A stretch of DNA of 64,000 bases from a virus. Taxonomy: Duplodnaviria > Heunggongvirae > Uroviricota > Caudoviricetes. Shown piece after piece: positions 11,062-11,910 of the stretch. The notes under the pieces are model-generated. The model saw nothing but the letters and a program-made list of their open reading frames with translations, was not told the origin of the DNA and searched no databases. The translations under genes and the position numbers were made by a program. Every line of letters begins with the position of its first letter. Positions within the stretch are counted from its first letter, which is position 1. The DNA is taken from IMG/VR virus record IMGVR_UViG_2684623127_000006. One strand, 5' to 3'.

Positions 11062-11700
11062 ATGGAATTTAAAGATTTACCTCCTTCAATCCAGGAGATT
11101 GCAGCACACACACTTCGTCATCGTCTGAACGAACTTGAATTGGAATCGGTAACGAAAAAAGACACTGATAATATGGCTCGTAATGTGCGCGATGCGTTTA
11201 CCGGATTGTATTTCTGTGCGTCTATAAATAAACACGACTCAGAGAGTGTGGCAAATAAAATTGCAGAAACGACAGCGCAAAACATCAATACGAAACCAAC
11301 GGAAGAAGAAATTGATCAGTTTGCTCATGATGCTGGTTTAAAAAACAAGAAAGAAAAATCGCCATATGCGGGGAACATGTTTGTTTATGACAATCTCATC
11401 AGAATTCGTGGCGAAATTCCGGCGGAATACCTGGCAAGAGTCCATCAGGCATTGCTTAAAAATTTGGAAACAGAATTATTTGATGGCAACACTAACGGTT
11501 TCTTCATGGTATCAGGCCTTGAGAAAGACTGGGATGCAGAAAAACGCTGGAATGTTGCTACATGGTTATTCAGTAACAGAGCCGCTGCACTGGAAGCTTC
11601 GGCATGTATTTGCGGCCTGTTCTTAACAGACCACAAATATAATCTGGATGTGTACAGTTATATTTACGCTGAACACGGTCCACTCTGGATTGACTGGTAA
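11062..11700 (+). CDS. Hypothetical protein, repressor-proximal insert unique to prophage A
   Basis: 212 aa from MEFKDLPPSIQ with GAGG SD; hydrophilic, no recognisable motif. Confidence 0.5.
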   Translation: MEFKDLPPSIQEIAAHTLRHRLNELELESVTKKDTDNMARNVRDAFTGLYFCASINKHDSESVANKIAETTAQNINTKPTEEEIDQFAHDAGLKNKKEKSPYAGNMFVYDNLIRIRGEIPAEYLARVHQALLKNLETELFDGNTNGFFMVSGLEKDWDAEKRWNVATWLFSNRAAALEASACICGLFLTDHKYNLDVYSYIYAEHGPLWIDW

Positions 11701-11910
11701 TTATAAGGAAACACCAGCAGGGCCGCGGCGACCAACAGAACGATTAAAATCAATAATGCCATTATAAAGGACATTATTTAATTTATCGTCGAATGCTGAT
11801 TCTGTGAGCCTCAACTCTGAATGAGTTTTTAATAACCCTGATTGCCTGAGTTGATTTACCAGGCATTCAATCTGTTTTTCAATAAGCGGATTTCTTTTTT
11901 TGTTTGGCAT
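11701..11910 (-). CDS. Hypothetical protein, convergent with 11062-11700
   Basis: 69 aa from MPNKKRNPLIEKQ with GGAGG SD; stop codons of the two genes abut. Confidence 0.45.
   Translation of the reverse strand: MPNKKRNPLIEKQIECLVNQLRQSGLLKTHSELRLTESAFDDKLNNVLYNGIIDFNRSVGRRGPAGVSL

Follow-up and report, generated by a model that had tools for sequence, protein, structure and literature searches.

What is the role of two genes that face each other, stop codon against stop codon, inside the early operon of a prophage? The question is raised by positions 11,062 to 11,910 of a 64,000-nucleotide stretch of viral DNA (IMG/VR record IMGVR_UViG_2684623127_000006, Caudoviricetes; the whole stretch is referred to here as the window), which matches Escherichia coli chromosomes of the O157:H7/O121 type at 100% identity. 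The window holds two prophages, and the genes in question lie in the immunity region of the first, prophage A, which is lambdoid and Qin-like. The names BIG and SMALL are used for both the genes and their products:

11062-11700, plus strand: BIG, second gene of the early-left operon, encoding an acidic, soluble protein of 212 amino acids (isoelectric point 5.2; family phrog_2151)
11701-11910, minus strand: SMALL, convergent with BIG, 37% G+C, encoding a basic, soluble protein of 69 amino acids (isoelectric point 9.7; family phrog_4274)

The answer reached is that BIG and SMALL make up a conserved accessory cassette of two genes, mobile among temperate phages of enterobacteria, their description as a conserved and coupled unit being new here. 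As regards function, the reading preferred, to which a probability of roughly one in three is given, is that the cassette might bring about exclusion of other phages or abortive infection and, like sieB/esc or BstA/aba, let its own phage escape, with SMALL acting in the lysogen and the C-terminal domain of BIG as its partner or antagonist in lytic growth.

At the junction of the two genes, the stop codon of BIG (TAA, 11698-11700) abuts that of SMALL (TTA as read on the plus strand, 11701-11703), giving TAATTA. A Shine-Dalgarno sequence precedes each start, GAGG six bases ahead of the ATG at 11062 in BIG and, on the minus strand, GGAGGA five bases ahead of the ATG at 11910 in SMALL. RefSeq calls exactly these open reading frames, both as 'hypothetical protein' (WP_000394548.1 for BIG and WP_001133037.1 for SMALL). 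A first-pass annotation of this DNA had placed a 212-residue and a convergent 69-residue frame between the ydfA-like gene and DicF, with good ribosome-binding sites and abutting stops, and in all of this it agrees with the calls and signals just given. Its statement that the transcripts must overlap went beyond the sequence, where what is seen is only that no intrinsic terminator was found between the convergent genes on either strand.

Both are genuine genes and not chance reading frames, as follows from the purifying selection acting on them: when compared with alleles at a synonymous divergence (dS) of 0.3-0.7, the ratio of nonsynonymous to synonymous change (dN/dS) was 0.19-0.28 for SMALL and 0.13-0.23 for residues 101-212 of BIG. 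In addition, each protein matches a PHROG profile over its full length, BIG that of phrog_2151 (expectation value, E, 1.8e-147; residues 1-212) and SMALL that of phrog_4274 (E 1.2e-51; residues 1-69), both families being of unknown function.

The coupling of the genes was assessed at the level of genomes and of individual loci. With a match coverage of at least 80% counted as presence, BIG was found in 596 of 5,426 complete E. coli genomes and SMALL likewise in 596 of the 5,426 (about 11%), the carriers including O157:H7, O121, O145, O111 and O103 strains; the pair, once described as unique to prophage A, is so within the window and is widespread outside it. A convergent SMALL was present at 92 of the 97 evaluable loci fetched by means of the BIG C-domain, the stop codons abutting exactly in 83 of them, lying 6 or 16 nucleotides (nt) apart in two and overlapping in seven, all from Salmonella. 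Conversely, every one of the 74 loci fetched by means of SMALL had a BIG C-domain, convergent and at most 30 nt away. The dependence is asymmetric: SMALL was never seen without the BIG C-domain, and BIG was sometimes seen without SMALL. At four of the five loci devoid of SMALL its place, on the same minus strand, is taken by a phrog_1244 gene, BIG being intact in these four, and at one locus (L005; strain RM13752) BIG is split by the insertion sequence IS100 and SMALL has an internal stop. The carriers differ in their repressor, which is of the S24 type here and of the DicA type elsewhere, and in their upstream genes (ydfA, ydfB, ydfC, relBE). Inherited together at these loci and across two prophage backbones, the two genes do form the unit that had been supposed.

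Distant relatives extend this picture to a second genus. In a profile search of 1.84 billion representative proteins, and then in a profile search with the C-domain only, such relatives of BIG were found only in Salmonella enterica. Their C-domain is 31-39% identical to that of E. coli BIG, and their N-terminal parts are unrelated to its own, one of them (P0205) having an inserted Cro/C1-type helix-turn-helix domain. The gene order in these elements is integrase (minus strand), helix-turn-helix repressor (minus), Cox (plus), the BIG relative (plus) and then a convergent small gene of 64-69 codons, which overlaps the end of the BIG relative by 11-53 nt. The product of this small gene is 52-53% identical to SMALL, and the Salmonella proteins match the same families as their E. 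coli counterparts, phrog_2151 for the BIG relatives and phrog_4274 for the small proteins (E 1e-19 and 5e-9). Judged by these matches, the small protein of Salmonella is truly homologous to SMALL. The homologues have in common the pattern P.I..QIEC...QL..SGLLK..S.L...AF..KL...GI...R..GRRGPAG..L-COOH, the C-terminal tail GRRGPAG..L being invariant. The pair and its orientation have thus outlasted transfer to another type of switch, exchange of the upstream neighbours and replacement of the BIG N-terminus, and the element constantly co-occurring with SMALL is the BIG C-domain. The pair belongs to the accessory DNA that varies between strains of Escherichia and Salmonella; relatives were not found in two scans of GTDB species-representative genomes, and metagenome contigs held only E. 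coli-like copies and one spurious match (L107).

The modular build of BIG is also evident within E. coli, and one short run of bases bears on the reading frame of SMALL:

11062-11226, plus strand: N-terminal helical module of BIG (residues 1-55), mosaic between alleles
11356-11697, plus strand: C-terminal alpha/beta domain of BIG (residues 99-212), predicted as beta-beta-alpha-beta-beta-alpha-beta; the part of BIG that is kept in the Salmonella relatives
11895-11901, minus strand: run of seven A in codons 4-6 of SMALL

The N-terminal module, some 55 residues long, is found as well at the start of unrelated proteins from Stx2a phages and from many other lambdoid prophages, and is common to other lambdoid early proteins with unrelated C-termini (phrog_1363, 9419, 6937 and 33007). 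For certain pairs of alleles, dS over residues 1-60 of BIG rises abruptly to 1.3-1.5, and several interchangeable N-terminal versions are seen in the alignment. The AlphaFold models, both of low confidence, give BIG four N-terminal helices followed by a C-domain with the above order of elements (predicted local distance difference test, pLDDT, 64), and SMALL two helices (pLDDT 62). No transmembrane segment is predicted, the maximum Kyte-Doolittle value of a 19-residue window being 0.22 for SMALL and 1.16 for BIG, and the net charges are opposite in both the E. coli and the Salmonella pairs, about -10 to -12 for BIG and about +4 for SMALL. Eight IMG/VR loci have six A instead of seven in the run, which shifts the frame of SMALL after 'MPNKK' and is accompanied by an intact BIG in six of the eight. 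These alleles could stem from errors in sequencing the homopolymer, or the run could be a genuine slippery site that acts as an on/off switch; it is absent from the other main SMALL allele.

The surroundings of the pair suggest when each gene would be expressed:

9633-9923, minus strand: P22-Cro-like gene
9967-10605, plus strand: repressor reading frame of 212 amino acids, with helix-turn-helix and peptidase-S24 regions
10671-10690: operator-like palindrome of 19-20 base pairs, abutting the -35 element of the early-left promoter
10690-10718, plus strand: candidate sigma-70 promoter of the early-left (P_L) or dicBp type, TTGACC-17-TAAACT, from a consensus scan
10898-11050, plus strand: ydfA-like DUF1391 gene (Pfam, E 1e-29), conserved left flank of the variable slot
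11967-12300, plus strand: untranslated region of the DicF precursor together with DicF, conserved right flank, which accompanies the pair into Salmonella elements
12249-12300, plus strand: DicF (Rfam, 75 bits)

The palindrome has two related copies between cro and cI, at 9904-9922 and 9950-9968. The candidate promoter, which occupies the position of the dicB operon promoter in Qin of strain K-12, would drive the ydfA-like gene, BIG, DicF and dicB; 3' of DicF lie dicB itself, a DUF1482 gene and a truncated recE. With a P_L-like promoter and its flanking operator ahead of it, BIG should, in contrast to rexAB, not be expressed in the lysogen, and its product would be expected only once the prophage repressor has been inactivated. 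As for the repressor, RefSeq annotates only its C-terminal 112 codons (10267-10605), as 'LexA family protein', whereas the open frame has 212 codons from the ATG at 9967, the N-terminal helix-turn-helix region included; the gene is therefore probably under-called.

On the opposite strand, upstream of SMALL, a structured region was recognised:

11911-11997, minus strand: putative SMALL mRNA leader, folding into three hairpins and comprising the 87 nt ahead of the start codon
12005-12033, minus strand: weak candidate promoter of SMALL, TTTTCA-17-TAAACT, proposed from reading the sequence and ending 7 nt ahead of the first hairpin

The three hairpins fold alike in the E. coli and Salmonella versions. 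The first (11976-11997, GCCGGA-N12-UCCGGC) is invariant. In the second (11951-11966) the sequence varies and the pairing is kept, a covariation seen in the stems ACACG/CGUGU of E. coli and CCCGA/UCGGG or CCCAA/UUGGG of Salmonella, with one G.U intermediate. In the third, the arm CUCCAU (11941-11946) pairs with the AUGGAG that contains the Shine-Dalgarno sequence (11917-11922) in 9 of 9 aligned sequences, one of them with a U.G variant. Both G.U pairs would become C.A mismatches if read on the plus strand, and the folding relative to shuffled controls is better for the minus strand (z -2.3) than for the plus strand (z -1.1). Because the pairing fits the minus strand only and the fold is better there, the leader was assigned to the minus-strand RNA. 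There is moderate evidence, drawn from nine sequences with few independent changes, that positions 11911-11997 constitute the 5' leader of a SMALL mRNA whose ribosome-binding site would be sequestered. If so, the promoter of SMALL must lie upstream of the first hairpin. The weak candidate found there was not reported by the consensus promoter scan and is poorly kept in Salmonella; the sole match of that scan for SMALL, TTAACC-18-TAAAAT, overlaps the start codon and was rejected. As a separate observation, the 14-nt core of the second hairpin (11952-11965), CACGTGACAGCGTG on the minus strand, occurs as its exact reverse complement in one allele group (compare L003, L004, L065, L067 and L075), and this flip, with the stem kept and the loop inverted, looks like a small hairpin-mediated inversion.

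The position occupied by the pair has other tenants elsewhere. Aligned with K-12 Qin, the DNA is homologous up to and including ydfA, and homology resumes only at about 11967, at the start of the DicF precursor, the slot being filled in K-12 by ydfB and ydfC, both on the plus strand and unrelated to BIG and SMALL. The K-12 operon dicBF (ydfA-ydfB-ydfC-dicF-dicB-ydfD) has the same frame as prophage A, namely a repressor/cro-type switch, ydfA, the slot, the DicF precursor, DicF, dicB and a DUF1482/ydfD-like gene; it differs in the co-directional plus-strand slot genes and in its repressor, DicA in place of the S24 (LexA/CI-type) protein found here. In the lysogen that operon is kept repressed, and inducing it yields toxic products (PMC5069750). 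In the second prophage of the window, prophage B, the slot (58738-59384, ahead of DicF at 59727-59778) holds a 118-residue protein and ydfC, and is thus filled by unrelated genes, as had been noted; a tblastn search within the window found ydfC only in that prophage. In PPompW_132418 (LC567822.1; L087, 3501-4119), ydfC is followed by a plus-strand gene for a 135-residue protein, a convergent and overlapping 77-residue gene, and then DicF and dicB. The 135-residue protein belongs to phrog_1363 and shows 54% identity with BIG over its N-terminal 50 residues, and the 77-residue protein belongs to phrog_10348; slot, N-terminal module and an overlapping convergent small gene are therefore shared with BIG and SMALL, whereas the C-terminal part and the small protein are unrelated to the BIG C-domain and to SMALL. 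The phrog_1244 protein that takes the place of SMALL has 172 residues, a coiled-coil and two CxxC pairs (L084, 4802-5317, minus strand; also L070, L080 and L106). It had no PADLOC or Pfam match and seems to be another cargo gene of this antisense slot, both SMALL and a distant phrog_1244 relative being carried by L005 and L077.

With so many alternative fillings across prophages, the interval from ydfA to DicF is a mosaic cargo slot adjoining the immunity region, and this part of the first-pass annotation is borne out by K-12, prophage B, PPompW and the phrog_1244 loci. Its further suggestion, that the slot is the site of cargo of the rexAB and sieB type, holds for sieB, whose antisense position relative to N in lambda is the same, and fails for rexAB, whose slot lies between cI and P_L. 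Moreover, the other known residents of the slot (dicB, dicF and kil-type genes) have host-takeover functions, which makes a role other than defence about as likely.

Function was also sought by homology. Neither BIG nor SMALL had a match in Pfam, NCBIfam or PADLOC, even at E <= 1, in keeping with the earlier remark that no motif could be recognised in either, and only the PHROG families named above responded. Against PADLOC-DB v2, with its 5,027 defence-protein models, BIG, SMALL, the PPompW pair and the phrog_1244 protein were all unmatched. Sequence searches of the PDB with four profiles gave insignificant matches only and fold searches with the low-confidence models generic ones; profile searching and structure prediction together gave no homology of BIG or SMALL to structural or housekeeping proteins. 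In the literature that was accessible a description of the pair was not found, and papers on the dicBF operon and on a filamentation screen make no mention of the two genes.

A number of specific identities were considered and rejected. A match of BIG residues 8-93 (11083-11340) to the C-terminal part of Noc (PDB 7ng0), which would sit beside the division inhibitors DicF and DicB, is insignificant (E 0.04) and nothing else supports it, and that of SMALL to amidases is likewise insignificant (E 0.26). BIG as a protease was discarded, given that the Salmonella relatives do not retain its conserved residues Cys182, Cys184 and His205; as an N-type antiterminator it would want the arginine-rich N-terminus, which it does not have; and its likeness to a SUKH-type immunity domain is a loose motif resemblance with no profile match. 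RexAB-type exclusion is contradicted by the absence of RexA or RexB homology and by the location of the pair 3' of the P_L-like promoter (10690) and not between cI, which ends at 10605, and that promoter. Membership of the SieB family fails for both proteins on sequence match, size and membrane segment, and the translations of YdfB and YdfC are unrelated to either. Finally, the pair is not a type II toxin-antitoxin operon, the genes being convergent and not co-directional, with no match to a toxin or antitoxin family, and BIG being kept intact without SMALL at the four replacement loci and at six of the eight frameshift loci, where a toxin in need of its antitoxin should not persist.

A likeness of arrangement is nevertheless found in lambda, where N (complement(35037..35438)) and sieB (34482..35036) run towards each other until their stop codons touch, as BIG and SMALL do; sieB and SMALL both lie antisense within the early-left operon, converge with an early gene and adjoin the immunity region. 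SieB, a product of the lysogen, aborts the growth of superinfecting phage; P22 evades the SieB that it encodes itself by means of Esc. In prophage BTP1, the defence system BstA/aba reportedly adjoins the repressor, the carrier phage escaping it during its own lytic growth. Here the concept is alike and there is no homology to the present pair, BstA being a large single protein whose antidote is a DNA element and not an early protein. More generally, an orientation antisense to a lytic operon is a recognised mark of accessory loci that lysogens express (PMC7067206).

From the reality and coupling of the genes, their layout, the operator-flanked promoter and the leader, we infer phases of expression, a partnership between the proteins and an anti-phage role. 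In the proposed scheme, SMALL would be weakly transcribed in the lysogen, from its antisense gene inside the early-left operon, and convergent transcription from P_L would silence it after induction, BIG appearing only after inactivation of the repressor. The BIG C-domain and SMALL would be a cognate pair, the former countering or partnering the latter at the onset of lytic growth, and the outcome would be superinfection exclusion or abortive infection with the carrier phage spared. That SMALL is cast as the lysogen-phase actor and BIG as the counteracting or partnering protein is due to the asymmetry of their occurrence. A defence role is plausible; no homology, fold match or publication found assigns a function. 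The more specific claim, of a hitherto undescribed two-protein exclusion or abortive-infection system in which a soluble 69-residue lysogen effector would be switched off by the C-domain of a 212-residue early-lytic protein, and which would be mobile between lambdoid and Cox-type prophages, is a doubtful one and is advanced only tentatively.

Several points weigh against reading the pair as an exclusion or abortive-infection system. SMALL has 69 residues and is soluble, whereas SieB is an inner-membrane protein of about 160-190 residues (about 185); in addition, the convergent partner BIG is not N, there is no sequence similarity, and escape, as proposed here, would depend on a gene of its own and not on an internal start as in sieB/esc. 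No match to a known defence protein, informative fold or catalytic motif was found for BIG or SMALL, and the candidates for a SMALL promoter are all weak and poorly conserved. The co-occurrence counts come from close lineages, with about 37 distinct alleles of BIG and 25 of SMALL, and adjacent genes are linked anyway, and the frameshift alleles with six A may be sequencing errors. Furthermore, neither the pair nor its Salmonella relatives were found among 50,697 deposited phage genomes, in which only the BIG N-terminal module was matched; most carriers may therefore be defective prophages, for which 'self-escape' would be moot.

Among the alternatives, the one that survives best is that BIG is a host-directed early-lytic protein and that SMALL, as a lysogenic antidote, neutralises what leaks from P_L. 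This is possible, if doubtful. The known products of the operon to which BIG belongs are toxic to the host (PMC5069750), the two proteins are oppositely charged, their pairing is conserved across prophage backbones and in L005 they are degraded together, all of which an effector and its antidote would explain. An indispensable antidote, however, should be the partner that is never missing, and the reverse was found, SMALL never occurring without BIG and BIG staying intact without SMALL at the replacement and frameshift loci already described; the convergent layout, too, is unlike that of type II toxin-antitoxin operons.

A second alternative, which must be considered rather doubtful, would make the locus a regulatory gate. 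Antisense transcription of SMALL, with its protein as a small nucleic-acid-binding regulator, would block or tune read-through from P_L into dicF-dicB, or else BIG would control the weak SMALL promoter, as CII-type activators do with convergent promoters. The SMALL promoter region does lie between P_L and dicF-dicB, in the DicF-precursor region that moves with the pair, no terminator separates the convergent genes, and the asymmetry between BIG and SMALL is compatible with a gate on dicF-dicB. In addition, SMALL is a basic protein whose tail is flexible and rich in Arg, its promoter departs from a good consensus, as activator-dependent promoters do, and the BIG relative P0205 has a helix-turn-helix domain like those of Cro/C1 or CII. 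Nevertheless, E. coli BIG shows no DNA-binding motif, K-12 Qin keeps dicBF silent without either gene, and the purifying selection on the amino acids of both proteins implies that RNA alone is not the function.

That BIG and SMALL are two unrelated cargo genes with independent functions, linked by adjacency with the breakpoints falling outside, is unlikely: the slot is indeed a mosaic hot spot with many fillings, the BIG N-terminal module recombines freely and BIG does occur without SMALL, but pair, orientation and junction have survived divergence to 31-39% in the BIG C-domain and 52-53% in SMALL, the pair has survived lambdoid/Cox-type transfer while upstream neighbours and BIG N-terminus were exchanged, and BIG is there at 74 of 74 SMALL loci.

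If exclusion or abortive infection were the true role, the pair would represent a defence family without similarity to catalogued systems, in which defence and self-escape would be split cleanly between the lysogenic and the lytic transcription programmes; in the carriers, O157:H7, O121, O145, O111 and O103, phage traffic, that of Stx phages included, matters for the evolution of virulence. If instead the pair guards or gates the toxic dicF-dicB, this would help to explain the silence of the division inhibitors and the retention of the locus in multiple copies. Either way, a recurrent cargo slot emerges on the antisense strand of the first early-left genes, occupied by sieB in lambda, by SMALL here, by the phrog_1244 gene in some relatives and by the 77-residue gene in PPompW, and it could be mined systematically.

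Some minor observations concern the slot and its flanks. In prophage B, a pair of the RelB-like and ParE/RelE-like toxin-antitoxin kind (57918-58443) directly follows the DicA-like repressor, ahead of ydfC-DicF-dicB, and a similar relBE insertion is present in L003. The Salmonella Cox-type elements (L092, about 7100-7440; L089, about 6860-7165) keep much of the long untranslated region of the DicF precursor, for example GTGCGCTTCCGGTTG. At the position of DicF, L092 and L089 carry a different short sequence ending in a hairpin and a U-run, where the Rfam DicF model was negative, and alternative small RNAs may thus be encoded at this position. Elsewhere in the window, Rfam models matched hok/sok loci, one in each prophage (4853-5027 and 51394-51568, both on the minus strand), the small RNA STnc100 (47283-47455, minus strand), the ALIL frameshifting pseudoknot of an insertion sequence (52921-53037, plus strand) and tRNA genes at 310-559 and 48232-48478.

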